From Flavobacteriales bacterium (GTDB taxonomy: Bacteria > Bacteroidota > Bacteroidia > Flavobacteriales_D > Sanyastnellaceae), in the NCBI GenBank assembly GCA_030828175.1, contig JAURDB010000001.1, positions 1 through 55,778 on the forward strand: a stretch of 55,778 nucleotides of DNA, written 5' to 3'. The position numbers were made by a program, and so were the translations under genes. How positions within the stretch are numbered: position 1 is the first letter of the stretch; the number at the start of each line of letters is the position of its first letter. The notes beneath the pieces were generated by a model. That model was not told the origin of the DNA. It saw only the letters and a list, made by a program, of their open reading frames with translations, and ran no database searches. Of the stretch, positions 6,316-22,726 are shown one piece after another.

Positions 6316-6474
6316 CTGCACTGCGACGGCAAAATCAACCGCTCCGTTTCTGAGCGGCTTAAGTTCGCATGATTCTGCTGATGGTGCCGATTGAAAGGCA
6401 TAAGCTTCCCACGCCTCATTGTGACCAAAGCCCACGTGATGCATTTCGCATCAGCGCTTCATCCCCGTATCGAG

Positions 6475-9400
6475 ATGTCAGACGGGAATCGGCGGTACAT
6501 TTCCGGCATGATTCCATTTCCTCGTGCCCTTTTGATTGCTTTGTGTTTCCTTTTGACAGGGAGCGTCAATTCCCAAATGGCCAATCCTTATGTGCATTCC
6601 GACCCCATGGAAGTGCGTTTGGCGCCACTATGGGAAACCCCCAACGAAGGACAGCAATCCCAGTGGAGAAAGACCGGATTCTGGAGTCAATTCAAGGCGG
6701 AACACCCCCTTTGGCAGGCCCAATTTCACCCTGCAACCGCCACAGTTCATAGGGCTTATGGCCCGGCCATTCCCGCATCCAACCCAACGGATTGGCTGGA
6801 GGAGCAATTGGAATTTGCAGGTTGGTCTTCCGAGCTGGGGCCTTGGAATACCGTGGCCATGGGAAAACACAACATGAGCCGCTCTGTGCAAATGGTGGAG
6901 GGTCGCGTGGTTCTGGGAACGGAGTTCGTCGTCAAGACGGCCGAATCCGGAGTGGTCATGTGGGGAGCCCAATGCTTTGAGAATGCTGCATGGCCTGAGG
7001 ACAATGCTTTTTTGGCGGAGCAGGAACTGATGGACGCGGCCACAGCCGGATTGGATTTGTCATCCATGATGGCGGCCATGGGAGAGGAGTCTCTTCTGCC
7101 CGTTTTGGAAGAGGAGGGAGAACTGCGTGTTTATGCTTTCCGTCCCGTCAAAAAAGTTCAAGTATCCGGCACGCGGGAGGACGGTACTCCCGTGCAGTAT
7201 GCCACCTGGGTGGACATGGTGACGGGTCAGGTTTGGGAACGACAGAACCAAGTCCGGCACATAGGCAAGCCGCATGGCAAGCCTGCCAAGAAGCAAGTAC
7301 TTTCCATGGGGTCCCCGGCCATGCTGCAGACACTGAATTGCCAGATCACCGGTACCGTGCATTTGACCCAGCCTTTCGAAGAAGCCGTAGAGGTCGGTCT
7401 GGAAAACCTTTGGGTTCAAACGCAACAAGGAGCAGCCAATACGGCGCAAGGAGGGATGCTCACCCTCGATGGAGATGCCCCACAGCAAATTGGCCTCGAC
7501 CTGATGGGGTTATGGAGCACGGTCACTTCAAATGGGGTGACACCCAACTTTGAGGTGACGCTGGAAGGAGACGAGGTCGTGACATGGGATGGCACTGCGA
7601 ACATTCGGGAATTGAGTGCTTATCACAGTGTGAACCGCATTCACGACCACATGCAGTCGTGGTTGCCCGGGTTTGATGGGCTTGACTTTGCATTGCCCAC
7701 ACTGATTGATGTTTCCGGGACTTGCAATGCATTCTATACCCCGGGCGACCCCAGCATCAACTTCTATTCCGAAGGCGATGGGTGCAATGCTTTTTCGCTT
7801 GTGGCCGACGTGGTTTTCCACGAGTATGGTCATGGCATCAATGACCTTTTCTACGAAAGCCTGGGGAGCTCATTCATCAATGGTGCCATGGGGGAGGGCT
7901 ACGCTGACCTTTGGGCCATCAGCCTCAGTGAAAATCCCATCTTGGGAGAGGGGTGCTACAGTGACGATGCGGAGTCGTACATCAGGCGGTACGACATGGA
8001 CCCCAAGGTGTACCCCCAGGACTTGGTCGGACAAGTGCACGCGGATGGCGAAATCATCTGTGGCGCCTGGTATGACACCCACCTCCTCATGGGTGGCGAT
8101 TGGGACCTGACGCGGGAACTGTTTGTGGAGGCCTACGCCGGGCTGCAAGCGACGAATTTCGATGGCAATGAAGGCGAGGCCTATGTGGAGGTTTTGCTGG
8201 ACGTCCTCCAGGCAGACGATGACAATGCCGACCTGTCCGATGGAACACCCAATGGTGCAGCGATCCTGGAAGGATTCGGCATCCACGGCATCACCCTGTT
8301 CAGCAATGTCGACATCGGTCACGTGGCCGAGGAGTACAGCCCTGCAGGCGACCCCATCGTCCTCGATGCCAATGCCTTGGTGCTGTTTCCCTTCAGTCAG
8401 TATTTCGGCAGTTGCAATGTCTATTACCGGAGTCACGTCTACGAGGACTGGACGGAAATGCCCATGGTTCAAACGGCCGGGAGCACCTATTCTGCCGATA
8501 TCCCCGCCCAGGAGACCGGTACCGTTCTCGAATATCATTTCGGCATCACCGACATCTATGGCTCCGTCAGCGCCATCACGCCGTACAGCGCAGACAACGC
8601 TGCAAACCCCAATTTGCCATTTAACACCATTGTGGGGCTCAGTCCTGTGCTGATTGACGATCAAGACGATTACTCCGAATTCGGCTTCTGGCAATTGGGG
8701 TTGCCTGAAGACAATGCGACCACAGGACAATGGGAATCCGCCATTCCGGTTGGTTCATTCAGCAACCCGGGCGACCCCAGTTCCATTTGCGCACCCGACG
8801 AGGACCATACGCCCGGAGACGGGATTTACGCTTTCATCACCGGAGTCAGCCCCGGAGCGGATGCCGGCATTGGTTCGAACGACGTGGATGAAGGCAGCAC
8901 CACGCTTCAGTCCGAATCCATCGACCTGACCGGATTGACCACTCCGGTTCTCAGCTATTGGAGATGGTACGTCAACGCTCCAGCCAGCGGTGCCAACCCC
9001 GGCGCCGACTGGTGGCAAGTTTCCGTGAGTTCAGACGGAGGTGAGAATTGGATCAAGGTCGAAGAAACACTGACACAAGACATCTCTTGGCGAAGGAATG
9101 CTTTTGCCATAGAAGACTACGTTCCCCTGACCGACGCATTCCAAATTCGATTTACCGCATCTGACAGCCTGCGTCCTGATCAAGGTTTGCAGTTCGATGG
9201 AGGCTCCCTGATTGAAGCAGCCGTGGATGACCTGATCATTCATGACTTTGTCACTTCCGGGCTTGCAAACCAGGACCTCGACCATGGAATTGTTGCATGG
9301 CCCGTGCCCTTCTCTGACCGACTCCATGCCGCAGGATGGAATCCAGGCACCAATGTGCGGCTGCTGGATGCCCTTGGAAAAGAGGTGGCCAAAATCCAAG

Positions 9401-9522
9401 CCGGCCCCCTGGGTGAAGTTCACTTTGACACGGCGTTGATGCCTTCGGGCGTGCATGTTCTCGAAGGCGAGAATAGACAAGGAATCCTCCGACGAAAGGA
9501 AGTGGTGAGAGCAGGCAATTGA
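6475..9522 (+). CDS. Secreted thermolysin-clan (M4/M36-like) zinc metalloprotease with MAM-like domain and T9SS C-terminal domain
   Basis: The ORF is 6391..9522. The start is probably 6475 or 6508 (signal peptide MIPFPRALLIALCFLLTGSVNSQ). The zinc motif VVFHEYGHG is followed by a downstream GAMGEGYADLW, giving a gluzincin HExxH...E arrangement. A C-terminal sorting-type beta-sandwich is present. Confidence 0.8.
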   Translation: MSDGNRRYISGMIPFPRALLIALCFLLTGSVNSQMANPYVHSDPMEVRLAPLWETPNEGQQSQWRKTGFWSQFKAEHPLWQAQFHPATATVHRAYGPAIPASNPTDWLEEQLEFAGWSSELGPWNTVAMGKHNMSRSVQMVEGRVVLGTEFVVKTAESGVVMWGAQCFENAAWPEDNAFLAEQELMDAATAGLDLSSMMAAMGEESLLPVLEEEGELRVYAFRPVKKVQVSGTREDGTPVQYATWVDMVTGQVWERQNQVRHIGKPHGKPAKKQVLSMGSPAMLQTLNCQITGTVHLTQPFEEAVEVGLENLWVQTQQGAANTAQGGMLTLDGDAPQQIGLDLMGLWSTVTSNGVTPNFEVTLEGDEVVTWDGTANIRELSAYHSVNRIHDHMQSWLPGFDGLDFALPTLIDVSGTCNAFYTPGDPSINFYSEGDGCNAFSLVADVVFHEYGHGINDLFYESLGSSFINGAMGEGYADLWAISLSENPILGEGCYSDDAESYIRRYDMDPKVYPQDLVGQVHADGEIICGAWYDTHLLMGGDWDLTRELFVEAYAGLQATNFDGNEGEAYVEVLLDVLQADDDNADLSDGTPNGAAILEGFGIHGITLFSNVDIGHVAEEYSPAGDPIVLDANALVLFPFSQYFGSCNVYYRSHVYEDWTEMPMVQTAGSTYSADIPAQETGTVLEYHFGITDIYGSVSAITPYSADNAANPNLPFNTIVGLSPVLIDDQDDYSEFGFWQLGLPEDNATTGQWESAIPVGSFSNPGDPSSICAPDEDHTPGDGIYAFITGVSPGADAGIGSNDVDEGSTTLQSESIDLTGLTTPVLSYWRWYVNAPASGANPGADWWQVSVSSDGGENWIKVEETLTQDISWRRNAFAIEDYVPLTDAFQIRFTASDSLRPDQGLQFDGGSLIEAAVDDLIIHDFVTSGLANQDLDHGIVAWPVPFSDRLHAAGWNPGTNVRLLDALGKEVAKIQAGPLGEVHFDTALMPSGVHVLEGENRQGILRRKEVVRAGN
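9289..9519 (+). other. T9SS (Por) C-terminal sorting domain of the metalloprotease
   Basis: The last ~77 aa are IVAWPVPFSDRLHAAGWNPGTNVRLLDALGKEVAKIQ...SGVHVLEGENRQGILRRKEVVRAGN. They show the usual 'P-N/V-P-F...L.D..G..V......G.Y.l' layout of type A T9SS CTDs. Confidence 0.6.
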
Positions 9523-11120: not shown

Positions 11121-11567
11121 TTATTCGCAAATGACCCCAAACTCCACCAGCAGTTGGAGGAGGTCATTGGTGCCAACGATGCCATCCGGCACGATGTCAG
11201 CCAAGCAACTTTGGTCCGTAGAGAAGACACAGGAACCATTGTCAACCTCTGCATTTGATTCATAATTGAATGCCGTGGGGTAAGTACATCCACAAGTTGC
11301 TGGATGATCCAGAATTGTGAATGAAGTGGAAGCAGTGGCACCTGAAGCGTCTTGAGCTGAGATGGTGTAATCTCCGGCAGGAAGGGCTGTTAGATCCAAA
11401 TTGGTCAGGTAGGTTACTTCACCTACCGCACCTGTCGGGGTCAATTCTACCAGACCGGTCGAACTACCAGAGCAGCGGGTGGAGTACGAAACTGCTTCAA
11501 GTGTGAATTGGGCTGAGGCTGTTGTTACGGACAACAAGAAGACCATGAGGCCGATAATCTTGGACAT
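11121..11567 (-). CDS. Small secreted protein: SprB-repeat-like domain + one Cys-framed 'CNY' module + single dockerin-like half-tail
   Basis: The ORF is 11121..11606. The start is at 11567 (MSKIIGLMVFLLSVTTASAQ). The segment CSGSSTGLVELTPTG...LPAGDYTISAQDASGATAS resembles a SprB repeat. GCTYPTAFNYESNAEVDNGSCVF is one copy of the module repeated in the neighbouring giants. The protein ends CLADIVPDGIVGTNDLLQLLVEFGVICE. Confidence 0.7.
   Translation of the reverse strand: MSKIIGLMVFLLSVTTASAQFTLEAVSYSTRCSGSSTGLVELTPTGAVGEVTYLTNLDLTALPAGDYTISAQDASGATASTSFTILDHPATCGCTYPTAFNYESNAEVDNGSCVFSTDQSCLADIVPDGIVGTNDLLQLLVEFGVICE
11124..11207 (-). other. Single dockerin-like half-module at the extreme C-terminus
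   Basis: The sequence is CLADIVPDGIVGTNDLLQLLVEFGVICE. It has one D-x-x-x-D-G-x-V-x-x-x-D-L-L segment bracketed by Cys, and the stop codon comes 1 residue after the last Cys. Confidence 0.5.
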
Positions 11568-11743
11568 GTGAAAAATTTGGTATAGTGAATTTACGGCTTT
11601 GCACAATAAGTACAGTTTTCCGCATCATCATAAAACGTGTAACAAATATAATATCCATCTAAACATCATATTTTGCAATGAAACGGGTTAATTGACCACC
11701 TAATAGTTTGTTCTCGTATTGGTACTCCGATTAACTTTAAACT

Positions 11744-14700
11744 ATGGACCAAATTCGCCTGAGCCTTTTGCTCATATACTGCTTCATAGCTGCAATCCCT
11801 CTTTCAGTTTGTGGACAGGCTTCCCCCATTTTCAATGCTTCCACCGGTACTGGATACCTGAGTATATCAGAAGCCATTCAATCCGCTTCTGAAGGGGATT
11901 TGATTACCCTGGGAGCCGTCACGTTCAACGAAAGACTCCTGATTCAAAAACCCATCACGCTCATCGGTGATGCTGCCGGGGGTACTGTTCTGGATGTGCG
12001 AGGAACCACGGGTTGGGGAATCTGGTTGGGTTCCAGTGGCATCACTATTGAGAATCTTACGGTTCTTTCGAACGTCAGCCATGAGGGATATGGTTTGCAT
12101 TGCGACCCCGGTACGACAGACCTGACGCTTCGAAATGTCCGCGTCCTCAACAACGGAACTTCTGGAATTGACCTGAATGGTCTGGTAGGTCCTGGAACGA
12201 ATTTGATTGAGGATTGTGAAGCGGTCAATTGTGCAGCTGGATTCGGTCTGGCTTTGAGCAGTTGTCAAAATGTCGTGGTCCGGAATTTCATCTCTTCCAA
12301 GAACGGTTTTGGCGACATCGGAATCCTGGAAAGTGCATACACAACAAATGATTCCGAGTCCATCACTTTTGAAGGTTCTCTTGAGCTTGATGGGCCACAG
12401 GCTGATGGCCTTGGAGGCATCATCATTCAATCCGACACCACGGTGATTGAACCGGGAATTGGCTTGGGTTTTGACATCGACATGAAGTCGGGACTGATTC
12501 ACCAATTGACAGGAACCACCACATATGACGGTGACCCATTGGGATATGTCCTCTGCAGTTCGTCCGTAGTTGCTGAACTTTCCGACAACCTTACCTCAGG
12601 ACTGGGCGTGGCTGACTTGCTCGGTCGGAATCTGGTCACCGGAGAAGTGGAGGTTTGGCCAGGGATGTCGCTTCAAGAAGCCTTGAATGCTGCCGCGAGT
12701 GATGACATCATTCGGGTGGCAAATCCGGGTCTGTACGACAGCACTGTGGTCAACGTCAACAAATCCATCACCATTCTGGGACCCAATGCTGGTTTGGCGG
12801 CCAATGATCCTGCTCGGACAACGGAAGCGGTTTTCTCAGGAGGATTGTCCATCAATGCATCGAATGTCACGGTGGATGGCATTCGACTGTTGGGGAAAAA
12901 CAATGCTCCATTTGGTCTTGAAGTCACTGCCGGAGTCACCGATGTCAATGTAAGTAACACCGTCATTCGGGGTTGGCTTGAAGAAAGTGGAGACTTCAAT
13001 GCCGTTGGCTTGCGCGCCAATGGGGGCGTCAATTTGACGGAGTGTTCGCTAAGGAACTGGCCCCTGGCTGCTGTTCTGAACAGCGGGGAAGTATCACTCT
13101 CAAATTGTCAGATTACAGACAACCGTGCAGGAGTCGAAATGAACAGTTCAAACGGGTTTTACGATGAAATGCGGGTCAACAATTGCACCCTCAGAAATGC
13201 CGGTGCTGACGCGTTCTTGATTTCGTCCACCGACCCAGCCGACAGCCTCGTGGTCATCGGGGGTACTGCCAATCTGCACTCCTACGCCTTCCGATTCGAC
13301 GACGATTGTGCCTTCAGGGTGGAAAATGGGGTCTATTCAGAATCAGAAGTGCAAATTTTGGGATTGGATACCGAGTCAAGAATCGCGCTTTGCGAGTCCA
13401 ATGACTTCAACAATCCTGCCATTGTCGTTGATGCTTGTACGGACGCATCTGCAACGAATTATGAGCCATGTGCCACCATTGATTCAGGGAACTGTTTGTT
13501 TGGTGGATGTACGGATCTCGGAGCGTGCAACTTTGACCCGGATGCAGCATCAGATGATGGAAGCTGTGAATTCCAGTCCTGTGCTGGATGTTTGAATCCC
13601 ATTGCATGTAATTACGATGCATCCGCCACCATCAGCAATGGTGGTTGTGAATTCCTTTCTTGTAGAGGATGCACGGATCCGTCAGCATTGAACTATGCCT
13701 CTTCGGCCACATATGATGACGGCTCTTGTTTGTTCCCCGGTTGCACCAACCCTGAGGCGGACAACTATGACGCAGATGCCAACTTCGACAACGGAGTGTG
13801 CTTCTTCTTTGGATGCACGGATCCCGGGGCTTGCAACTTTGATCCTCAAGCCAACTTGAACCTGGGAACCTGTGAATTCACCAGTTGTGCAGGCTGTTTG
13901 AACCCAAGGGCTTGCAATTATGATGCGACTGCGGTTATCGACGCCGGCAATTGTGACTTCACAAGCTGCAGGGGCTGCACCAATCCCGACGCATTGAATT
14001 ATGATGTGAATGCAACGGTAGATGACGGATCGTGTCGGATTCCCGGTTGTACGGATGCAACGGCCACCAATTATGATGCCGACGCCAACATCAACGACGG
14101 CTCCTGCATTTTCAGCGGCTGCCTGGATGCGTCTGCATGCAACTTCGATCCCAACGCAAGCATCAATGACGGAAGCTGCGAATTCACTTCTTGCGCAGGT
14201 TGCGCGATTGAGGGATTCTGCAACTACGACCCCAATGTCACGATACACGATGGCAGCCTTTGTGATTACTTGAGCTGTTGTGGTGACCCTGCGGCTACGA
14301 ACTACGATCCCGCCATCCTGCCTCAACTCACTTTTGGTTGTACCTACGGCATGTCAGCTGGGATGGCCTTCCTCGAGACATGCACGTTGCCCATTGCTTG
14401 CAATTACCTCGCGGATGCTCCTTGTGAATTCGACTCTTGCGCAGGTTGCACGGATGCCACTGCCTGCAATTACGACGCGGCAGCTACCCTCAGCACCAAT
14501 ACTTGCACATTCCCCATGGATCTCTACGGAGACGCCAATGTGGACTGTGACGGCAACTGCCTCAATGACACCGATGGTGACGGCATCTGCAATGAGGACG
14601 AAGTCAATGGCTGCACAGATGAGGGCGCCTGTAACTACGATGTCAATGCTACAGAAGACGACGGCTCATGTGAGACCACTTCGTGTGGTGGATGCACGGA

Positions 14701-16300
14701 TTCAGGCGCCTGTAACTTCGACAATACCGCCTTGTTGAACAATGGATCCTGCGAGTATGAGACGTGCTCGGGATGTACAGATGAAACCGCTTGCAATTAC
14801 GACGCTCTGGCTACCATCTCTGGAGAATGCACTTTCCCAATCGATACATACGGAACGGATGCTGTGGATTGTGATGGAAATTGTCTCGGCGATTCAGACG
14901 AAGACGGAGTGTGCGACGGGGATGAAATCCAAGGCTGCACGAACGCAAGTGCTTGCAATTTCAATGCAGCAGCCACGGATGATGATGGGTCATGTGACCT
15001 CCTTTCGTGCAAGGGATGCACGGACCCCACCTCCTGTAATTTCGATGCTTCAGCCACTGTTCCAGACAACAGCTGTGAGTATGAAAGTTGCGCAGGGTGT
15101 CAAGATCCGGCAGCATGCAACTATGATCCCAGCGCGACGATTGACGCGGCTTGTACTTTCCCTCTCGAGACGTACCTCGATTGTGACGGCAACTGTTTGG
15201 TTGATACAGACGGTGATGGTGTTTGTGAGCCCAATGAAGTGGGAGGATGTACCGATGCGGAGGCATGCAATTTCTCTGACACGGCAACCGACGATGATGG
15301 ATCGTGCGAATACATCAGCTGCGCGGGTTGCACCAATCCTGGCGCATGCAATTATCAGCCCTCGGCTACGATCAACGACGGAAGTTGCAATTACACTGAC
15401 TGTCAAGGATGCACCGATTCACAAGCTTGTAATTACGTTCCCGATGCCACAGTGGAAGATGGAAGCTGCATTTATGTGCTGGACCTCTACAATGTCACCT
15501 ATCTGACATGCGGGGGAGGCTGCATCAATGACACGGACGGCGACGGAGAATGCGATGAAGAGGAGCAAGTCGGTTGTTTGGATGCCTCAGCATGTAACTA
15601 CAATGCCAACGCTGAATTCGACGACGGCAGCTGCGAATTCACTTCGTGCGAGGGCTGTACCGACAATACGGCCTGTAATTACAATGAAGGCGCCCTGTAT
15701 GATGATGGAAGTTGTACCAACCCCGTCAACTTGTATGGTAAGGATTACGTCGACTGTTTCAATGTTTGTCTGAACGATGCTGACGGAGATGGCATCTGTG
15801 ATGAGGAGGAGTTGGGTTGCACCGATCCAACGGCCTGTAACTATGATCCCATTGCATCAAGCGATGACGGCTCGTGTTTCTATCCCAGTGAGGATTACCT
15901 GGATTGTGATGGAAATTGTTTGAACGATGCCGATGGGGACCTCGTTTGTGACGAGTTGGAAATCCTCGGATGTACGGACCCGGCAGCCTGTAGCTATGAC
16001 AACACAGCAACGGAAGATGACGGCTCATGTCAATATATCGTCAACGACTGTGATACATGTGTGGATGGCGTGATCGTGGATGGTGACGCCGATGATGATG
16101 GCATCTGTGATGCCGATGATGTTTGTCCTGGGGATTTCAACTCGGATGGAATCCGCAGTGCTTCTGATGTACTCGTGGTTTTGGCGGCCTATGGTTGTGA
16201 TACCGACTGTGGAGCTGCCGACCTGGACGGAAATGGTTTCGTGACGGCATCAGACGTTTTGGCCATGCTCAGTTACTTCGGTACTGTCTGCCCGAACTGA
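11744..16300 (+). CDS. Giant secreted protein (1518 aa): two right-handed parallel beta-helix domains + ~27 Cys-framed modules with TSP3-like spacers + double dockerin-like C-terminal tail
   Basis: The signal peptide is MDQIRLSLLLIYCFIAAIPLSVCGQ. There are two beta-helix starts (ISEAIQSASEGDLITLGAVTFNE...; SLQEALNAAASDDIIRVANPGLYDS...). From about aa 563 onward come tandem GCTDxxACNYDxxAxxDDGSC units and DCDGNCLNDTDGDGIC spacers. The protein ends ...VCPGDFNSDGIRSASDVLVVLAAYGCDTDCGAADLDGNGFVTASDVLAMLSYFGTVCPN. Confidence 0.9.
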   Translation: MDQIRLSLLLIYCFIAAIPLSVCGQASPIFNASTGTGYLSISEAIQSASEGDLITLGAVTFNERLLIQKPITLIGDAAGGTVLDVRGTTGWGIWLGSSGITIENLTVLSNVSHEGYGLHCDPGTTDLTLRNVRVLNNGTSGIDLNGLVGPGTNLIEDCEAVNCAAGFGLALSSCQNVVVRNFISSKNGFGDIGILESAYTTNDSESITFEGSLELDGPQADGLGGIIIQSDTTVIEPGIGLGFDIDMKSGLIHQLTGTTTYDGDPLGYVLCSSSVVAELSDNLTSGLGVADLLGRNLVTGEVEVWPGMSLQEALNAAASDDIIRVANPGLYDSTVVNVNKSITILGPNAGLAANDPARTTEAVFSGGLSINASNVTVDGIRLLGKNNAPFGLEVTAGVTDVNVSNTVIRGWLEESGDFNAVGLRANGGVNLTECSLRNWPLAAVLNSGEVSLSNCQITDNRAGVEMNSSNGFYDEMRVNNCTLRNAGADAFLISSTDPADSLVVIGGTANLHSYAFRFDDDCAFRVENGVYSESEVQILGLDTESRIALCESNDFNNPAIVVDACTDASATNYEPCATIDSGNCLFGGCTDLGACNFDPDAASDDGSCEFQSCAGCLNPIACNYDASATISNGGCEFLSCRGCTDPSALNYASSATYDDGSCLFPGCTNPEADNYDADANFDNGVCFFFGCTDPGACNFDPQANLNLGTCEFTSCAGCLNPRACNYDATAVIDAGNCDFTSCRGCTNPDALNYDVNATVDDGSCRIPGCTDATATNYDADANINDGSCIFSGCLDASACNFDPNASINDGSCEFTSCAGCAIEGFCNYDPNVTIHDGSLCDYLSCCGDPAATNYDPAILPQLTFGCTYGMSAGMAFLETCTLPIACNYLADAPCEFDSCAGCTDATACNYDAAATLSTNTCTFPMDLYGDANVDCDGNCLNDTDGDGICNEDEVNGCTDEGACNYDVNATEDDGSCETTSCGGCTDSGACNFDNTALLNNGSCEYETCSGCTDETACNYDALATISGECTFPIDTYGTDAVDCDGNCLGDSDEDGVCDGDEIQGCTNASACNFNAAATDDDGSCDLLSCKGCTDPTSCNFDASATVPDNSCEYESCAGCQDPAACNYDPSATIDAACTFPLETYLDCDGNCLVDTDGDGVCEPNEVGGCTDAEACNFSDTATDDDGSCEYISCAGCTNPGACNYQPSATINDGSCNYTDCQGCTDSQACNYVPDATVEDGSCIYVLDLYNVTYLTCGGGCINDTDGDGECDEEEQVGCLDASACNYNANAEFDDGSCEFTSCEGCTDNTACNYNEGALYDDGSCTNPVNLYGKDYVDCFNVCLNDADGDGICDEEELGCTDPTACNYDPIASSDDGSCFYPSEDYLDCDGNCLNDADGDLVCDELEILGCTDPAACSYDNTATEDDGSCQYIVNDCDTCVDGVIVDGDADDDGICDADDVCPGDFNSDGIRSASDVLVVLAAYGCDTDCGAADLDGNGFVTASDVLAMLSYFGTVCPN
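13430..16120 (+). repeat. Coding tandem-repeat array: ~27 degenerate 23-27-codon Cys-framed modules organised in ~108-codon super-repeats
   Basis: I counted the units by eye in the translation. The recurring consensus is [S/T]-C-x-G-C-T-[DN]-x-x-A-C-N-[YF]-[DN]-x-x-A-x-x-[DN]-D-G-S-C-x-[YF]. The 3' half (about 14440-16120) adds a DCDGNCLxDxDGDGxCDxxE spacer after every 1-3 units. Confidence 0.85.
16121..16297 (+). other. Cysteine-framed double dockerin-like C-terminal tail
   Basis: The sequence is VCPGDFNSDGIRSASDVLVVLAAYGCDTDCGAADLDGNGFVTASDVLAMLSYFGTVCPN. It has two EF-hand-like D-x-N-x-D-G-x-[IV]-x-x-S-D-V-L segments and 4 conserved Cys, and it lies at the extreme C-terminus. Confidence 0.7.
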
Positions 16301-16322
16301 TTCAACCCTCCTTTATGAAACG

Positions 16323-16348
16323 AAAAGGGCCGCATTGCGGCCCTTTTT
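16323..16348 (+). terminator. Rho-independent terminator after the 1518-aa gene
   Basis: The sequence is aaaa-GGGCCGC-att-GCGGCCC-ttttt. It forms a perfect 7-bp GC stem with a 3-nt loop, followed by a T5 run, 23 nt after the stop codon. Confidence 0.75.
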
Positions 16349-16415
16349 GCTTGTGGACATTCGATGAATTTCGAATTTTATTCGACCGAACCGCTCGAAT
16401 GATATACAAATGACC

Positions 16416-16423
16416 TATATTTG
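16416..16423 (+). promoter_or_regulatory. Bacteroidota-type -7 promoter box (TAnnTTTG) for the 16443 gene
   Basis: TATATTTG lies 20 nt upstream of ATG 16443 in an AT-rich spacer. Its position inside the longer ORF (16410) supports the start at 16443. I saw no clean -33 TTTG. Confidence 0.4.
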
Positions 16424-16442
16424 TAGTCGAAAGTCATATATT

Positions 16443-19379
16443 ATGCCTCGAACTCTATTCTCATCGCTGCTCTGTCTCTTGATGGCACCGATCATGGCCC
16501 AATCGGAATCCACGCAGCCCGTGACAAACGTGACGACCGGCGCAACTTTTGAAACCATTGCAGAGGCCTTGAACGTGGCGTCATCTGGTGACGTTTTGAA
16601 TTTGGCTGGTTACAGGTTTACAGAACACATTGCAATCGATGTACCTCTCACCTTAACGGGAGCAGAAGGTGGGACCACGGTCATTGACGTGTCGCAGCAG
16701 GATGGCTGGGGAATTACCCTTTCAAGCGACAACATCACCTTGAAAAACCTGTCCATCCTCGCCGGTGATGTGAATACGGCATATGCCATCCACAGTGAAC
16801 CCGGAATCACGGGGCTCACATTGGAAGACATAGCGGTTTACGATTCCCACAGAACATGCATTGACCTGAATGGATTGACGGGGCCGAGCGTAAATACCCT
16901 GAGAAACCTGACTGTTTCAGGCAGTTCCATTGGATTTGGCCTCGCCATGAGTTCCTGTTCCAACATGTTCATCGAGAACATCACGAGTTCAGACAATGGT
17001 TACGGTGACATTGCCATTATGGAATCCAATTACTATGACCAAGAAATATCCGACGTGGTATTCACTGGATTCCTTGATTTGGAGGGGCCTCAGAATTTGG
17101 GGGGAGGTGGCATTATTGTTCAGGTGAGTCCTGAAGAAGTGCCGGTTGGCGCCGGAGCAGGTTTTCCCATCAGCGTCAATTCAACGGGTTTTGATTACCT
17201 CTTGGAAGCACCCGGAGATTTGACCGGATGCATTTTGGTGCACAGTGAGGACGTCAGGGCCATTGCCCAGACACTCGGTGCAAATGTGACCCCCTTGGTA
17301 TCCTATGACTTGGTTACGCAAAACCTCGTCGTTTTCCCCGGGATGTCCATTCAAAGTGCCCTGGATGCAGCCTCCGATGGGGACGTCATCGAGGTGGACC
17401 CCGGATCCTTTGATTCTACTCCGTTGCAGATTGCGGGCAATGTCACCTTGAAAGGAGCCAACGCTGGTATTTCAGGGACTTCCACAGCCCGATCATCGGA
17501 AACGCTGGTGCAAGGCATTGTCGTAACGGATGGAACACCGCTCATCGACGGCATCCACATTTCCGGTGGAGCTGGAACCGCTGGACTCGTCGTTATGGAA
17601 GCAGCCGCCGGAGTGGAATTGCGCAACAGCATCATTTCTGGAAATGGGACGGAAACCGGTGTGATCTGCAGGAATTCATCCTTGCTGCACGATGTCGTAG
17701 TCGAAAGCTTTGACAAAGGCATCCAACATCTCTCTGGGGCATTGGTCATGGAATCCAGTGTCATCAAGGGAAATGGCACGGGGGTATCCATCGAGCACAC
17801 GTCTTCTTTTGCCGAAACCACCACGCTGCAAAACTGCCAACTGTTGAACACCGGTGGAACCGGCATCCTCGTTCAGTCGGGCGGGTCAAATGACCTGTTG
17901 ACGATTGAAAATTCCACGATTGAATTGCACGCCACAGGCTTGAACGTGACCGGCGACATCTCCCTGGCCATAAGCGGCAATGTCTTTGTGAATTCAGAGG
18001 ACCACACGATGGGCCTTGACAGGGAAGCCAGAATCGCACTTTGCGGCAGCAATGGATTCGAACCCGCTTTGCGCATCAACGGATGCACAGACAACAACGC
18101 AGACAATTTTGAGCCATGTGCCACTGTGGACCAAGGATGTGAATTTCATGGATGCACGGCACCCAAGGCTTGCAATTATGATGCCTCGGCGACGACCGAC
18201 GACGGAAGCTGTGACTTCATCACCTGTTCGGCTTGTCCACTGGGATTTGCCTGCAATTATGATCCCGATGCCGACCTCTACCGAGTAGAAGCATGTGAAT
18301 TTCTGGACTGCGGGGAAGGCATGGCAGGCAGTGGGGAAGACAGGGGCAATCTCGCTGTGGTAGAGGGGTGTACCATTCCACAAGCCTGCAACTTCAACCC
18401 GAACGCCGATTCTGACGATGGGAGCTGCAATTTTGGATGCTATGGCTGCCAAGATGAAGCCGCGTGCAATTTCGATGCAGTGTTTACCCAAGCTTCCAAT
18501 GAAACGTGCCTGTACCAGCAGGACCTGCACAATTCACCCTACGTGGGCTGTGACGGGGCATGTGTGAACGACACCAATGAAAATGGAGTGTGCGATGAAG
18601 AAGAAGTCACAGGCTGTACGGATGAGGGGGCTTGCAATTTCAGCGCTTCCGCCACTTTGGATGTCGGAGATTGTGAGTATGCATCCTGTGCGGGTTGCAC
18701 CAATCCGGGCGCTTGCAACCACGATCCCTCGGCCACCCTTACGGATGCTTCTTGTGACTACACTTCTTGCGCTGGATGCACGGATTCAGGGGCGTGCAAC
18801 TACAACGCGATGGCCAGCATCGATGATGGCACTTGTTCCTATCCCATCGACTTGTACAACAAGCCATGGGTGGACTGTACGGCGACTTGCCTGAATGATG
18901 CCGATGGCGATGGCGTTTGTGATGAGGAGGAGACCAGCGGTTGCATGGAGAGTGGTGCGTGCAATTACGATGAGGAGGCGACCGACGACGATGGAACGTG
19001 CGAATATGAGTCTTGCTCAGGATGCACGGATGACGCCTACTGCAATTTCAATCCAGGCGCCACCATCAACGACGGAAGTTGTGCGGCTCCGGAAGACCTG
19101 TTCCCCAATGCCATTGTGGACGGAGTTTCCACGGTGGACTGTCTCGGACGCTGTCTCAATGATGAAGATGGCGATGGGATCTGTGATGAGGCAGAAATCG
19201 TCTGTCCTGGAGACCTCAATGGAGACGGTCTCCGGGGAGCTTCAGACATTCTTGTGATGTTGAGCGCCTTTGGGTGCACGGAGGGATGCGGATCACCAGA
19301 TTTGAATGGAGACGGCATCGTCGCTGCCAGTGATGTCCTGATGGCCCTTTCCACCTTCGGGGTGGCATGTCCTCAGTAA
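16443..19379 (+). CDS. Giant secreted paralogue (~978 aa): two beta-helix domains + ~11 Cys-framed modules with TSP3-like spacers + double dockerin-like tail
   Basis: The ORF is 16410..19379. The start is at 16443 (MPRTLFSSLLCLLMAPIMAQ). It is collinear with the 11744 protein across the beta-helix head (e.g. GWGITLSSDNITLKNLSIL vs GWGIWLGSSGITIENLTVL; GFGLAMSSCSN vs GFGLALSSCQN). It ends VCPGDLNGDGLRGASDILVMLSAFGCTEGCGSPDLNGDGIVAASDVLMALSTFGVACPQ. Confidence 0.9.
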   Translation: MPRTLFSSLLCLLMAPIMAQSESTQPVTNVTTGATFETIAEALNVASSGDVLNLAGYRFTEHIAIDVPLTLTGAEGGTTVIDVSQQDGWGITLSSDNITLKNLSILAGDVNTAYAIHSEPGITGLTLEDIAVYDSHRTCIDLNGLTGPSVNTLRNLTVSGSSIGFGLAMSSCSNMFIENITSSDNGYGDIAIMESNYYDQEISDVVFTGFLDLEGPQNLGGGGIIVQVSPEEVPVGAGAGFPISVNSTGFDYLLEAPGDLTGCILVHSEDVRAIAQTLGANVTPLVSYDLVTQNLVVFPGMSIQSALDAASDGDVIEVDPGSFDSTPLQIAGNVTLKGANAGISGTSTARSSETLVQGIVVTDGTPLIDGIHISGGAGTAGLVVMEAAAGVELRNSIISGNGTETGVICRNSSLLHDVVVESFDKGIQHLSGALVMESSVIKGNGTGVSIEHTSSFAETTTLQNCQLLNTGGTGILVQSGGSNDLLTIENSTIELHATGLNVTGDISLAISGNVFVNSEDHTMGLDREARIALCGSNGFEPALRINGCTDNNADNFEPCATVDQGCEFHGCTAPKACNYDASATTDDGSCDFITCSACPLGFACNYDPDADLYRVEACEFLDCGEGMAGSGEDRGNLAVVEGCTIPQACNFNPNADSDDGSCNFGCYGCQDEAACNFDAVFTQASNETCLYQQDLHNSPYVGCDGACVNDTNENGVCDEEEVTGCTDEGACNFSASATLDVGDCEYASCAGCTNPGACNHDPSATLTDASCDYTSCAGCTDSGACNYNAMASIDDGTCSYPIDLYNKPWVDCTATCLNDADGDGVCDEEETSGCMESGACNYDEEATDDDGTCEYESCSGCTDDAYCNFNPGATINDGSCAAPEDLFPNAIVDGVSTVDCLGRCLNDEDGDGICDEAEIVCPGDLNGDGLRGASDILVMLSAFGCTEGCGSPDLNGDGIVAASDVLMALSTFGVACPQ
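18081..19198 (+). repeat. Coding tandem-repeat array (~11 Cys-framed modules, 3 TSP3-like spacers)
   Basis: The units run GCTDNNADNFEPCATVDQGCEF / GCTAPKACNYDASATTDDGSCDF / ... / GCMESGACNYDEEATDDDGTCEY / SCSGCTDDAYCNFNPGATINDGSC. The spacers are GCDGACVNDTNENGVCDEEE, DCTATCLNDADGDGVCDEEE and DCLGRCLNDEDGDGICDEAE. Confidence 0.85.
19199..19376 (+). other. Cysteine-framed double dockerin-like C-terminal tail
   Basis: The sequence is VCPGDLNGDGLRGASDILVMLSAFGCTEGCGSPDLNGDGIVAASDVLMALSTFGVACPQ, with the same 4-Cys frame as 16121..16297. Confidence 0.7.
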
Positions 19380-19392
19380 TGGCATGAAATTT

Positions 19393-19428
19393 CCCTCCCG
19401 AGGCTGGCCGTCTGCGACCTCGGGAGGG
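19393..19428 (+). terminator. Strong hairpin between the 16443 and 19478 genes (possible partial terminator or processing site)
   Basis: CCCTCCCGAGG-(14 nt)-CCTCGGGAGGG forms a perfect 11-bp stem starting 14 nt after the stop codon. No T-run follows it. Confidence 0.4.
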
Positions 19429-19477
19429 CAATGCATTCATAATGGATGCATCTTCAGGCGGAACTACCAAAACCTCG

Positions 19478-22400
19478 ATGCGCCGCCCCATCCCCAATCC
19501 GTGGCGGGAGAATTGCCCTTGGCTTGCCATTCTTCTGGCAGGGTGGTGGATGTGTGGCCCAATGGCAATGCAAGCCCAGCATTGGAGCGATGGACTGCTT
19601 CCAGGCGCGGATTGGACCGCGGCATTCGATCAATTCGATAGCACCTGGCAGGACAGCATCCCTGAAAAAGGAAAAGGGTTCAAACCCTTCATGCGATGGC
19701 GAGAATTCGCAGAAAAGCGTTTTGCCTTTGAGGGGAGCGAGGAATGGTCGCCCAACGCCCCTTGGCAAGCCACACAGTGGGAAAGAGAAGGCAGGGCGGC
19801 CCGAACCCAGCCCCCGGATACGCTGTGGAGAAGCGCTGTACCCGCTGGGGTTCCCCTGGTGGGCGGAGCCGGACGCGTCAATCGGGTGGTGGTCCACCCC
19901 CTTGATACCAGCCGATGGCTCGCCTGTGCACCGAGTGGTGGACTCTGGCAATCGCAAACATCCGGCAACAGCTGGTCTCTCATGGGAACGCAGGATTGGG
20001 CGGGAATGGGGGTTTCTGACGCCGCTTTCCATCCAAACGACCCCGATTGCATACTGGCGGCCACGGGGGATTCCGACTTCGGAAGTGCATACGCCATTGG
20101 GCTGATGCAAACCTGTGATGGCGGAAACACCTGGAGTCCCACAGGACTTCAGTTCGAAATGGAGCAAACCTTGACCTGCAGCCGCGTTCATCGAAAGGCG
20201 GGGGACCCCCAACAGATCCTTGTGGCCACAGGCGATGGCATCTGGTTGAGCGAAGACGACGGCGTTACGTTCAGCAAGACCTTGGAAGGGGTTTGTTCCG
20301 ACCTGATTCCCCACCCGGGCGATTCAGCAGTATGGCATGCAGCGCGCAGGCCAGGAGAGTTGTTTCGATCGACCGATGGCGGACGCCATTGGGAGTCCAT
20401 TCCCGGAATGCCCTCGGCGTATCTCGCCAGTCGATATGTGCTTGCCACGACACCTGCCGACCCCTCTCTTGTAGCCGCCATCGCATCCAAGAGCGGAAGC
20501 CAAGGATTGCTTGGGTTGTACCTCAGCGCAGACAGCGGAGCGACTTTCTCTGCACTGCCGGATTTGCCCAACCTGTTGGGGTGGACCGCAGACGGCTCCG
20601 ATTTGGGCGGGCAAGGCTTTTACGACCTCGCCCTGGCCGTGGACCCGACCGACCCCCATCATATGGTGGCAGGGGGTGTCAACCTCTGGGAGACATGGGA
20701 CGGGGGAGTGTCCTGGAACTGCACCGGCCATTGGTTTGGGGGAGGAGAGGCGCCATACGTGCATGCAGATCACCATGCTGTGACCTTCATTCCAGGGACC
20801 TCCGACTGGGTCAGTGCACATGATGGAGGCGTCAATCGATTGGGCGCAGCACAAAATGTAGACCTGAGCGAAGGCCTCGAGGTAGGACAGGTATATCGAC
20901 TGGCTTGGTCCGAGGCACAGCCGAACCAACTCCTCTCAGGAGCGCAAGACAATGGGATCAACCTCCTCAAGGACGGAGTGCATGCACAGGTCATCGGCGC
21001 CGATGGTTTTCACTGTTTGATCGATCCGGATGCACCAGACAACCTGATTGCATCAGAGTACTATGGCAAGGCACACCGCTCTACGGATGGTGGATGGAGC
21101 TGGGCTCCGTGGATATTGAGCAACGGGGACGGGGTGAACGAGCAGGGAGATTGGAACACCCCCTTGGCCCAGTCTCCCGTGGTTCCCAATCGAATCCATG
21201 TTGCAAAACACAGGGTTTATTGGACCGACGATGCAGGCATTACTTGGGGACAAACCCAGGCTTTGCCTGGTAATGAAATCGAAGTCTTGGCATTGTCGTT
21301 CACCGAAGACAGCATCCTTGCGGTGGCCAAGGGAAGCTTCGCTTTCATCACCCATGACCTGGATCAATGGACCCCTTTGACTGGGTTGCCCGGCATGCCC
21401 GTCCAAGACCTTTTGTTCGATGCGGGTTCTAGTGATGTGCTGTGGATGGCCTTCGGCGGATATTCGGCAGATGATCGCATCTGGCAATCTTTGGATGGGG
21501 GGGATTCCTGGGATTCATTCAGCGAGGGATTGCCCGCTTTGCCTGTCAATGCGCTCACCCAGGACCCAGGATCTGGAGACCTGTACGCAGGAACAGACGC
21601 TGGAGTCTATGTGAGGCCAGCGGGAAGCAGCAGCTGGACACCCTACAAATCAGGCCTGCCTGAAGTGCTGTGCAGCGACATCGGCATTCGACAGTCCACC
21701 GGGGAATTGCTGCTGGCGACCTACGGCAGAGGTCTTTGGAAAGCACCACTGCATACCCCCCCTGCAAGGGATGCAGGGATTGTTGCCATCCATGGGACGA
21801 AAGCTGTGAGATGTTCTGGCCCGCTTTCAGTTGCGACGGAAGTGCGCAATTGCGGCAGTGACACGTTGGTGGCAGTGAGTTTGCTCTGGAATGGAACAGA
21901 CACCGTTACCTATGGAATGCTGCTTCCACCCAATGCCGAAACGAGCCTGAATTGGCCCAACAGCTCCAGGGCTGCGGTTCCGGCAGGAGATCAGCTCGTG
22001 GTCCGCATTGTCAATGTGGTCGGCGCCGATGGAAATTGGAGCCAGGGAACCATTGAGTCTGGATTTGATGACGTGCCGGAAAACGATGTCTTGGGTGCAA
22101 CCTGGGAACACAGGGAGGGAACGGGGTGGGTGACCATGTCCACACTCGCAGACTGCAACCCCAGGGAATCTGCATGGGCCATCGCGGATACCACTGGCGA
22201 AATCCAATACCGAAGACAACATTTCCCCATCGAGTTGGCCATCATGGATTCACTCTGTTTGGGCCACGGATGCTATGAAGTCGTGCTGCATGACCAATCC
22301 CAAAATGGGTTCGCCGGGCCTCAATGCGGTTCACTCGGGTCCATGGAGCTTCTGTCTGCAACAGGCGACACGATTTGGTCCTTGTTGGACCCATCCTCTG

Positions 22401-22726
22401 CAGGGGTTGCATTTTCATCAGGCCTGGGCGGATCATTTTGCTTGCCGATGGCCGGGTGGGTAGGATGCACTGAGCCTGGCGCATGCAATTTCAACCCGGC
22501 TGCCTCTGTCGATGACGGCACCTGCATCATGGAATGCCACGACGCGCAGCCATGTCCAGAGGACCTCGATGGAGATGGCCTGTACGGAGCAACAGACATA
22601 CTGGCTGTGCTCTCCGAATTCGGCTGTATGTCAGGTTGCAGCATGGACATCACCGGCGACGGAACCGTATCTGCCAATGACGTCCTTGCCTTGTTGGCAT
22701 TGTACGGCGAATCATGTGTCCCATGA
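19478..22726 (+). CDS. Secreted BNR/Asp-box beta-propeller protein (sortilin/Ycf48-like) + Ig/CARDB-like region + one Cys-framed module + double dockerin-like tail
   Basis: The ORF is 19442..22726. The likely start is 19478 (MRRPIPNPWRENCPWLAILLAGWWMCGPMAMQAQ). There are at least 8 Asp-box-like S/T-x-D-x-G-x-[TS]-[WF] motifs (CDGGNTWSP, SEDDGVTFSK, STDGGRHWES, SADSGATFSA, TWDGGVSWNC, STDGGWSWAP, TDDAGITWGQ, SLDGGDSWDS). The C-terminus is GCTEPGACNFNPAASVDDGTC...PCPEDLDGDGLYGATDILAVLSEFGCMSGCSMDITGDGTVSANDVLALLALYGESCVP. Confidence 0.85.
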   Translation: MRRPIPNPWRENCPWLAILLAGWWMCGPMAMQAQHWSDGLLPGADWTAAFDQFDSTWQDSIPEKGKGFKPFMRWREFAEKRFAFEGSEEWSPNAPWQATQWEREGRAARTQPPDTLWRSAVPAGVPLVGGAGRVNRVVVHPLDTSRWLACAPSGGLWQSQTSGNSWSLMGTQDWAGMGVSDAAFHPNDPDCILAATGDSDFGSAYAIGLMQTCDGGNTWSPTGLQFEMEQTLTCSRVHRKAGDPQQILVATGDGIWLSEDDGVTFSKTLEGVCSDLIPHPGDSAVWHAARRPGELFRSTDGGRHWESIPGMPSAYLASRYVLATTPADPSLVAAIASKSGSQGLLGLYLSADSGATFSALPDLPNLLGWTADGSDLGGQGFYDLALAVDPTDPHHMVAGGVNLWETWDGGVSWNCTGHWFGGGEAPYVHADHHAVTFIPGTSDWVSAHDGGVNRLGAAQNVDLSEGLEVGQVYRLAWSEAQPNQLLSGAQDNGINLLKDGVHAQVIGADGFHCLIDPDAPDNLIASEYYGKAHRSTDGGWSWAPWILSNGDGVNEQGDWNTPLAQSPVVPNRIHVAKHRVYWTDDAGITWGQTQALPGNEIEVLALSFTEDSILAVAKGSFAFITHDLDQWTPLTGLPGMPVQDLLFDAGSSDVLWMAFGGYSADDRIWQSLDGGDSWDSFSEGLPALPVNALTQDPGSGDLYAGTDAGVYVRPAGSSSWTPYKSGLPEVLCSDIGIRQSTGELLLATYGRGLWKAPLHTPPARDAGIVAIHGTKAVRCSGPLSVATEVRNCGSDTLVAVSLLWNGTDTVTYGMLLPPNAETSLNWPNSSRAAVPAGDQLVVRIVNVVGADGNWSQGTIESGFDDVPENDVLGATWEHREGTGWVTMSTLADCNPRESAWAIADTTGEIQYRRQHFPIELAIMDSLCLGHGCYEVVLHDQSQNGFAGPQCGSLGSMELLSATGDTIWSLLDPSSAGVAFSSGLGGSFCLPMAGWVGCTEPGACNFNPAASVDDGTCIMECHDAQPCPEDLDGDGLYGATDILAVLSEFGCMSGCSMDITGDGTVSANDVLALLALYGESCVP
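22550..22723 (+). other. Cysteine-framed double dockerin-like C-terminal tail
   Basis: The sequence is PCPEDLDGDGLYGATDILAVLSEFGCMSGCSMDITGDGTVSANDVLALLALYGESCVP. Confidence 0.7.

Follow-up and report, generated by a model that had tools for sequence, protein, structure and literature searches.

A four-gene cluster built around one cysteine-rich unit

The DNA analyzed here is a stretch of 55,778 nucleotides (the window) from contig JAURDB010000001.1, assembly GCA_030828175.1, of a Flavobacteriales bacterium of the family Sanyastnellaceae. It encodes a 1518-amino acid (aa) protein, P1, whose C-terminal part is an array of short cysteine-framed units. An earlier note on the sequence had described about 27 such units in this protein and their recurrence in three neighbouring genes. 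A hidden Markov model (HMM) of the unit recovered 27 significant copies in P1 (per-unit E ~1e-7 to 1e-13), ~10 in the paralogue P2 and one each in P3 and P4. No further matches were found in the six-frame translation of the window and none in a reversed-sequence control. Thus, both claims were borne out, except that the starts given for P2 and P3 (16443 and 19478) were slightly off, their open reading frames (ORFs) beginning at 16410 and 19442. P1, P2, P3 and P4 follow one plan of a head domain, n units and a C-terminal tag, with n being 27, ~10, 1 and 1, respectively. The features of the cluster are as follows (unit forms A and B are described below).

11744..16300, + strand: P1, whole gene, 1518 aa; signal peptide, beta-helix head, 27-unit array with 7 spacers, C-terminal dockerin-like tag (ORF list, domain scans, unit HMM)
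11744..13363, + strand: P1 signal peptide MDQIRLSLLLIYCFIAAIPLSVCGQ and right-handed beta-helix head, aa 1 to ~540 (TIGR04247; PF13229 on an orthologue fragment; paralogue P2)
13430..14605, + strand: first half of the P1 array, aa 563-954, 14 units and the first spacer (unit HMM, autocorrelation)
13502..13807 and 13808..14113, + strand: two 102-aa B-B-A-A super-repeats of P1 (67% mutual identity)
14606..14929, 14930..15241 and 15242..15568, + strand: three full B-B-B'-spacer super-repeats of P1, 108, 104 and 109 aa, 14 Cys each
15569..16123, + strand: shortened super-repeats of P1, aa 1276-1356 (10 Cys) and aa 1357-1407 (6 Cys), and the last unit with a variant spacer, aa 1408-1460
14837..14929, + strand: example of a P1 spacer with a putative TSP3-type Ca2+ loop, PIDTYGTDAVDCDGNCLGDSDEDGVCDGDEI, aa 1032-1062 (loop conservation)
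~14513..14605, 15161..15241, 15476..15568, 15722..15811 and 15884..15964, + strand: other P1 spacers; variant spacer at 16037..16123
16124..16297, + strand: Cys-bracketed double dockerin-like tag of P1 (CPGDFNSDG...FGTVCPN), aa 1461-1518 (PF00404, NF041540, 2y3n_B)
16410..19379, + strand: paralogue P2, 989 aa; beta-helix head, ~10 units with TSP3-type spacers (~18081..19085), dockerin-like tag (19203..19376)
19442..22726, + strand: P3, Sortilin/VPS10-type head; C-terminus (22460..22723) with one 4-Cys unit (22460..22531) and a dockerin-like tag (22553..22723)
11121..11606, - strand: P4, small gene, 161 aa; C-terminus (11124..11291) with one 2-Cys unit (~11220..11291) and a half-dockerin tag (11124..11204)

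The head of P2 matched PF13229 and PF05048 above threshold. For P1, the NosD-family model TIGR04247 gave 47.5 bits, far under its cutoff, and PF13229 (Beta_helix) was found on P0274, an orthologue fragment 73% identical to the P1 head. A homology search with this head returned a single fragment, and a search of PDB sequences returned nothing meaningful. P4 gave a weak SprB-like match. The P1 signal peptide (11744..11818, + strand) has LSVC-GQ at its end, and this might mark cleavage of the lipoprotein type and not by signal peptidase I.

Anatomy and conservation of the array

Units were delimited by cutting the C-terminal part of P1 at the N-[YF] anchor. Between aa 563 and 1432 this yielded 27 units, each either 24 or 27 aa long, nucleotide 13430 corresponding exactly to aa 563. 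Form A has 24 aa and 2 Cys (xGCT[DN]xxAxN[YF][DN]xxA[TN]xDDGSCx[YF]); form B has 27 aa and 4 Cys, with an additional Cys at position 9 ('ACNY') and a trailing 'xSC'. The linkers that follow the units in this family are of three kinds, with no Cys (median 5 aa), one Cys (median 7 aa) or three Cys (median 30 aa, the Asp-rich spacer).

The units are arranged in higher-order repeats, which differ between the two halves of the array. In the first half, aa 587-688 and 689-790 form the B-B-A-A super-repeat, and a lag of 102 gave the strongest autocorrelation; this period had been omitted from the earlier note. The super-repeat of about 108 aa that it did report is found in the second half, where the three full copies share 51-59% identity and are followed by versions of 81, 51 and 54 aa. 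The Cys counts are likewise as reported, with 14 each for aa 955-1062, 1063-1166 and 1167-1275, and then 10, 6 and 10. The further statement that Cys counts are always even is true of the super-repeats and of the region that runs from aa 541 to the C-terminus as a whole (116 Cys in ~980 aa), but not of the single irregular units at aa 563, 818 and 844, which have 3 Cys each. Cys550, located just ahead of the array and conserved in P2, probably pairs with the extra Cys of unit 1.

Conservation was assessed in 964 units of 120 homologues. The framing Cys are retained (C3 in 99% of the units), as are G2 (98%), A8 (94%), N10 (95%), Y/F11 (98%) and A15 (91%). The loss of framing Cys in orthologues, which the earlier note had named as grounds for rejecting a disulfide-bonded stalk, was thus not observed. 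N10 and Y/F11 are near-invariant, and D12, D18 and D19 are frequent. Conserved positions are the cysteines and small or core residues; the likely surface positions 6, 7, 13, 14 and 17 vary. Approximately 1000 of 2664 canonical units have only two Cys.

A 49-row super-repeat alignment was used as AlphaFold2 input for aa 955-1089 of P1. The model had a mean predicted local distance difference test score (pLDDT) of 90.2 with no residue below 70, and a predicted template modelling score (pTM) of 0.57. Regular secondary structure is almost absent, and short beta-bridge positions repeat in each unit (G2-C3, residue 11 and residues 17-18). A Foldseek search of this 135-aa model against the PDB gave no match at E<=10, a comparison that is uninformative for modules of 24 residues.

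At the DNA level, Tandem Repeats Finder detected no tandem repeat. The copies are therefore old and have been kept alike solely as protein sequence. Synteny of the four-gene cluster extends to four loci in other genomes (L002, L003, L005 and L007), and the P1 orthologues there have 27, 27, 26 and 25 units. The best match of a P1 unit lay at the same ordinal position for 24 of 27 units in L002 and 21 of 27 in L003. In these two loci, units were on average 77-79% identical to the orthologous unit, compared to 63% for the best paralogous unit within P1. This positional orthology, together with the unit identities, indicates that the P1 array is old, conserved in length and not undergoing homogenization or expansion. 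Several alternative-frame or antisense ORFs lie within the array (13682..14326, -; 14280..14738, +; 14742..15506, +; 14961..15406, -). None of them has unit matches and they are most likely by-products of the repetitive, stop-poor composition; they were dismissed because homologues and unit matches occur only in the P1 frame.

Cysteine covariation suggests a disulfide pattern

The gain and loss of Cys was followed in 805 adjacent unit pairs from 122 proteins (P1, P2 and the 120 homologues). When Cys9 was present, the next linker contained 1, 3 or 5 Cys in 597 of 608 cases. When it was absent, the next linker had no Cys in 170 of 184. The parity is even at 783 of the 805 junctions if Cys9 is counted with the following linker, compared to 556 if it is counted with the preceding one. 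In 237 junctions the flanking units differ in Cys9, and here the parity tracked the preceding unit in 232 cases, compared to 5 in which it tracked the following one. Hence the even-count rule applies at most junctions, but the unit register of the earlier note, which placed the Cys of 'xSC' at the start of a unit, had to be corrected by one linker: this Cys is part of the unit before it, as 232 informative junctions indicate against 5.

Since form A retains only C3 and C22, these two must pair. The most parsimonious map implied by the covariation, not by coordinates, consists of a core C3-C22 disulfide and an optional C9-C27 disulfide. Where a spacer follows, parsimony suggests that C9 would pair with one of the three spacer Cys and the remaining two with each other. 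On these grounds, disulfides are predicted to form in the array.

The spacers carry a putative Ca2+ loop

The spacers had been described as TSP3/EF-hand-like in the earlier note, and this likeness was confirmed in 753 distinct 3-Cys linkers aligned on their third Cys. A 12-residue loop is conserved throughout, with D1 in 99%, D3 in 90% (N in another 9%), D5 in 89% (N in 10%), G6 in 90%, V/I7 in 93%, C8, D9 in 87% (N in 12%) and E12 in 95%. The pattern [DN]x[DN]x[DN]GxC[DNES]xx[ED] fitted 667 of 767 linkers, and the spacing C-x3-C-x9-C was found in 640 of 767. Window spacers scored 11.3-12.9 bits with PF18884 (TSP3_bac), below the cutoff of 25; many homologues carry precomputed matches to PF18884 or PF03495. 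The spacer is, judged by its residues, a TSP3/EF-hand-type loop of the form DxDxDG[VI]CDxxE, and it would be expected to bind Ca2+.

The C-terminal tag and the route to the cell surface

P1, P2 and P3 end in a tag of 57-58 aa that comprises two segments of a putative Ca loop followed by a predicted helix, with four bracketing Cys. Alignments to solved cellulosomal dockerins covered this tag from end to end (2y3n_B, E 2.4e-4 by phmmer over residues 2-54; 2ccl_B and 1ohz_B, E 0.005-0.012). The NF041540 model ('GC-type dockerin') spans it fully (1-67 of 67) with 23.3, 23.5 and 28.6 bits, the first score being that of P1 and the highest that of P3, against a cutoff of 29; PF00404 gave 19.8-21.6 bits against 22.9. 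An AlphaFold2 model of the C-terminal 111 aa, made from a 4-sequence alignment, was of low confidence (pLDDT 52.6) and had a helix after each loop. With type I dockerins and NF041540 the tag appears to share the two ~22-residue loop-then-helix segments and the G-C motif after helix 1. It differs from them in scoring just under the curated cutoffs, in its four bracketing Cys and in the half-size version that is common among relatives.

This half-size tag of 28-32 aa, with one Ca loop and helix (CPGDLNGDGxIxxxDLLxFxxxYGxxC), stands at the extreme C-terminus of P4 and of many relatives (11124..11204, -, in the window; loci L011, L031, L034, L057, L059, L064, L048 and L021). It looks like a family-wide sorting or anchoring tag that replaces the C-terminal domain (CTD) of the type IX secretion system (T9SS), and the full dockerin-like tag may similarly be read as a surface anchor or sorting tag. 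P1, P2 and P3 had no match to PF18962 (Por_Secre_tail) or to TIGR models of the T9SS CTD. A T9SS sorting tail (PF18962 or type B CTD) was present on the unit-bearing relatives L044, L065, L038, L033 and L017, and the domains that accompany arrays in other genomes include Por_Secre_tail, SprB repeats and the fasciclin domain. Based on the signal peptide and on these partners, the unit-array proteins are secreted proteins of the cell surface, in agreement with the extracellular location proposed earlier.

A large family without a curated model

No model in Pfam-A (2025) or NCBIfam 20.0 matched the unit, even at E<=10. The unit motif strings were absent from the searchable literature, and the literature on dockerins and T9SS in marine flavobacteria held nothing on this module. 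A word-indexed search with the three super-repeats found more than 4,432 proteins, all 'hypothetical' and many of them from TARA or other marine metagenomes or from Flavobacteriales metagenome-assembled genomes (MAGs). An exhaustive hmmsearch with a spacer-free two-unit profile against 1.84 billion cluster representatives identified the unit in 16,401 of them at E<=1e-3, 8,281 at E<=1e-10 and 2,174 at E<=1e-30. The longest match had 6,618 aa and 94 matched stretches.

A scan for related loci, run from a 5-row alignment and covering a single genome for each GTDB species, confirmed 346 stretches. Almost all of the 76 best loci come from uncultured marine Flavobacteriales/Crocinitomicaceae MAGs; the 76 contain 111 ORFs with 2,456 units (median 13); several ORFs with 80-110 units extend past the end of the locus. 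One protein (L064) has 45 units in 1572 aa and consists of almost nothing but units. Locus L001, of Flavobacteriales bacterium BS301-5m-G28, is 98.7% identical to window positions 12917..21010 over 8,094 nucleotides, which places the window in that species. Four loci with the cluster or with arrays (L002, CAXQGL010000043.1; L027; L050; L053) are filed under Nitrosopumilus sp. and Comamonadaceae MAGs. L002 has the full syntenic P4-P1-P2 order, and this taxonomic placement is most likely due to binning contamination.

The unit matches the perforin-2 hinge and viral proteins

Two profiles were compared with 177,635 PDB sequences, one built from 20 units of the window and the other from 70 diverse 2-Cys units taken solely from other genomes. 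The sole match of the first profile was MPEG1/perforin-2 (human 6U2J and 6U23, chain residues 331-353, E 5.7e-5; mouse 6SB1, 6SB3 and 8A1D, E 0.002-0.004). The second also matched MPEG1 alone, in five of five matches and end to end (human E 6.5e-5, mouse ~0.02). Further MPEG1-family sequences were retrieved with an approximate human MPEG1 query. Of these, P0122, P0123 and P0124, a divergent one (SGCTNPASENFDFNANLDDSTC), scored 24.7, 21.0 and 21.3 bits at the hinge site with a bacterial-only HMM, compared to a maximum of 9.2 bits over 20,000 composition-matched shuffles. The matched part of MPEG1 is its 'truncated EGF-like' module, an interdomain connector or hinge (PDB 6U2J, 6U23, 6SB1, 6SB3, 8A1D; PMC6989145, PMC7593815, PMC9713709) which turns unresolved in the pore state (PMC9713709). 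The module was named by analogy to the epidermal growth factor (EGF) domain, and the authors draw no link to a bacterial family (PMC6989145, PMC7593815, PMC9713709). It has no curated family of its own. It shares with the bacterial unit the 22-residue frame G-C-T-[DN]-x-x-[AS]-x-N-F-[ND]-x-x-A-N-x-D-D-x-S-C and the two framing Cys, fitting the 2-Cys form end to end, but it occurs as a single copy in an animal pore-former, without second disulfide, TSP3 spacer or tandem array. Thus, the earlier view that the unit belongs to no named family is correct as far as Pfam-A and NCBIfam are concerned, although a structural precedent exists.

Matches were also found among viruses. In a Foldseek search of predicted viral structures (BFVD), a single unit matched a Terrestrivirus protein with a membrane attack complex/perforin (MACPF) domain (23 columns, 52% identity, root mean square deviation 0.2 A), a PA14-domain protein of cyanophage S-RIM44 and an Rhs-like protein of Synechococcus phage S-CAM3. 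The array matched 13 viral proteins at E<=1e-3, several of them from Virus NIOZ-UU157, including one of that virus annotated with the crassvirus muzzle protein C-terminal domain. IMG/VR contigs contained 288 confirmed stretches, with recurring proteins of ~1000 aa that have a signal peptide, 12-20 units and a T9SS-type tail (loci L077-L156, e.g. L087:3228-6377 and L095:3345-6473; GC content ~30-35%, some contigs 100-245 kb). Some neighbours of these genes matched phage endolysin PHROGs and most matched nothing. The contigs are either large flavobacterial phages with a host-like surface protein or misfiled bacterial DNA. A tblastn search of GenBank phages (INPHARED) with two repeat segments gave no match, the low-complexity filter probably masking the query; the blank is put down to this filter because IMG/VR and BFVD clearly hold the unit.

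The viral and MPEG1 matches indicate that the unit extends beyond Flavobacteriales and that its pairing with MACPF recurs. For us the scales are evenly balanced on whether it is a mobile, ancient mini-domain that surface proteins of marine Bacteroidota (with arrays that can exceed 100 copies) share by descent with their phages, with proteins of cyanophages, with MACPF proteins of giant viruses and with the MPEG1 hinge. In that case the 'truncated EGF-like' module, the pivot about which perforin-2 turns as the pore forms, would be no EGF relic. It would belong to a very large microbial domain family that lacks a curated model and would have moved between kingdoms with or next to MACPF. The similarity could instead reflect convergence on a short motif, the bacterial unit being lineage-specific and unrelated to the perforin-2 hinge. 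The match covers only 22-23 residues, its E-values are modest (6e-5 for human, 0.02 for mouse) and the PDB search with Foldseek found nothing, all of which speaks for convergence. We nevertheless hold this to be rather doubtful: two independent bacterial-only profiles selected MPEG1 and nothing else from the PDB over their full length, divergent family members scored 21-25 bits where no shuffle exceeded 9.2, and the giant-virus MACPF protein matches one unit at 52% identity and a root mean square deviation of 0.2 A.

Genes around the cluster

The rest of the window holds ordinary Bacteroidota genes, among them those for a SusC-type TonB receptor, aromatic amino-acid synthesis, YebC, a thiolase, an Omp85 family protein and PNPase. 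One window gene gave a weak, sub-threshold match to a T9SS sorting tail. The gene at 6391..9522 (+), immediately upstream of the cluster, encodes a secreted protein of 1043 aa that has a HEYGHG zinc-protease motif and a weak M36 (fungalysin) match and lacks units. Another right-handed beta-helix protein (46014..47543, +; PF13229, 509 aa) is likewise without units in the HMM scan. A scan for promoters and terminators remained at or below shuffle expectation. A reading of the locus as a defence system was dropped, as PADLOC gave no matches.

A probable surface stalk and its alternatives

We consider it reasonably probable that P1 is a surface protein of a marine bacterium in which a disulfide- and Ca2+-stiffened extracellular stalk holds the beta-helix head away from the dockerin-like anchor. 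Each unit would be an ancient mini-domain of 24-27 residues, stapled by the invariant C3-C22 disulfide around a small core of G2, A8, N10, Y/F11 and A15. The 27-residue form would add a second, overlapping disulfide from C9 to C27 or to one of the three spacer Cys. After every second to fourth unit, a spacer of ~30 residues with its Ca2+ loop and its own disulfide would act as a Ca2+-loaded joint. In P1, 27 units and 7 spacers would form an extended stalk of fixed length, resistant to protease and shear, that joins the N-terminal head (a probable polysaccharide- or surface-binding or degrading domain) to the anchoring or sorting tag. The module, in one to more than 100 copies, may be a general connector in secreted proteins of marine Flavobacteriales. 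A structural role is favoured over binding because the conserved unit residues are Cys and small or core residues with a variable surface, and because the MPEG1 unit is a connector; rigidity, fixed length and the spacer function of the array are inferred.

Several points weigh against a stalk. The pTM of 0.57 leaves the rigidity and length of the array unsupported by the model, and the disulfide pairing was derived from covariation and parsimony. A ligand or Ca2+ site is equally conceivable for the near-invariant N10 and Y/F11 together with the frequent D12, D18 and D19. Some arrays have more than 100 units, which exceeds the apparent need of a simple spacer. A cohesin-like partner for the tag was not found in the part of the window ORFs that was scanned.

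The main rival is that the units themselves are functional, as a multivalent and possibly Ca2+-dependent adhesin or lectin for algal or particle polysaccharides or for cells, with the head as an accessory. The near-invariance of N10, Y/F11 and D/N12 and the frequency of D18, D19, G20 and S21 would suit a binding site, and proteins made almost solely of units, such as L064 and the ORFs with at least 100 units, are better explained in this way. Adhesion-type partner domains (SprB and fasciclin) and hosts that are marine particle-associated Flavobacteriales point in the same direction. We nonetheless judge an adhesin unlikely, as residues vary precisely where a surface is expected, the single copies in P3 and P4 are plain linkers between head and tag, the MPEG1 unit is a hinge with no ligand reported, and the copy number among orthologues is conserved and not variable. 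A further alternative, that the Cys are free metal-chelating thiols (metallothionein- or MopE-like Cu/Zn binding) and form no disulfides, draws on the sheer Cys density of the region and on precomputed matches of a few homologues to PF11617 (MopE metal-binding motif). It is highly improbable: the paired gain and loss of C9 and the downstream Cys fits disulfide partners and not metal clusters, 2-Cys units are frequent, the proteins are exported to an oxidizing environment, and the interior of the unit lacks the Cys-x-Cys or CxxC clusters typical of metal sites. No Pfam or NCBIfam match of the window proteins to MopE metal-binding motifs or to myxococcal cysteine-rich repeats was obtained.

Since neither Pfam nor NCBIfam detects this family, which occurs in at least 16,401 protein clusters, big parts of the largest surface proteins of abundant uncultured marine Flavobacteriales currently carry no annotation. 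The limits of the unit, its predicted disulfide pairing and the Ca-loop spacer are now defined. With a curated model, thousands of giant 'hypothetical' proteins could be annotated, and work on particle attachment and polysaccharide use could better distinguish the stalk from the functional head. The perforin-2 match offers a testable idea on the origin and mechanics of the hinge, and an existing structural template for the bacterial unit. Being small, apparently very stable and tolerant of changes in copy number, the unit is a candidate building block for engineered rigid linkers.

Comparison with known repeat families

The unit represents a large family of disulfide-rich repeats that has no curated model but whose general kind is known, and the nearest solved relative of the unit is the MPEG1 hinge. 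EGF-family profiles gave no match to the super-repeat or to the unit block at E<=10, nor to the whole proteins at E<=1. An EGF domain has ~40 residues and six Cys paired C1-C3, C2-C4 and C5-C6. The unit differs in having 2-4 Cys in 24-27 residues, in placing its putative Ca2+ sites in separate spacers and in its bacterial host; the predicted C3-C22/C9-C27 pattern equals just the first two EGF disulfides (C1-C3 and C2-C4), resembling the N-terminal half of the domain. The spacer loop DxDxDG[VI]xDxx[ED], flanked by disulfide-forming Cys, is the Ca2+-binding motif of thrombospondin type 3 and bacterial TSP3 repeats (PF02412, PF18884), but this likeness is confined to the spacers, the 27 units being unlike TSP3. 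Tandem arrays of calcium-binding EGF (cbEGF) domains, as in the ectodomains of fibrillin and Notch, form rod-like stalks that are stiffened by Ca2+ at intervals. With these the P1 array has in common the long tandem series of small disulfide-rich extracellular modules. By analogy, it would work like the tandem cbEGF or TSP3 stalks of animal matrix proteins, yet it is not a member of the EGF family.

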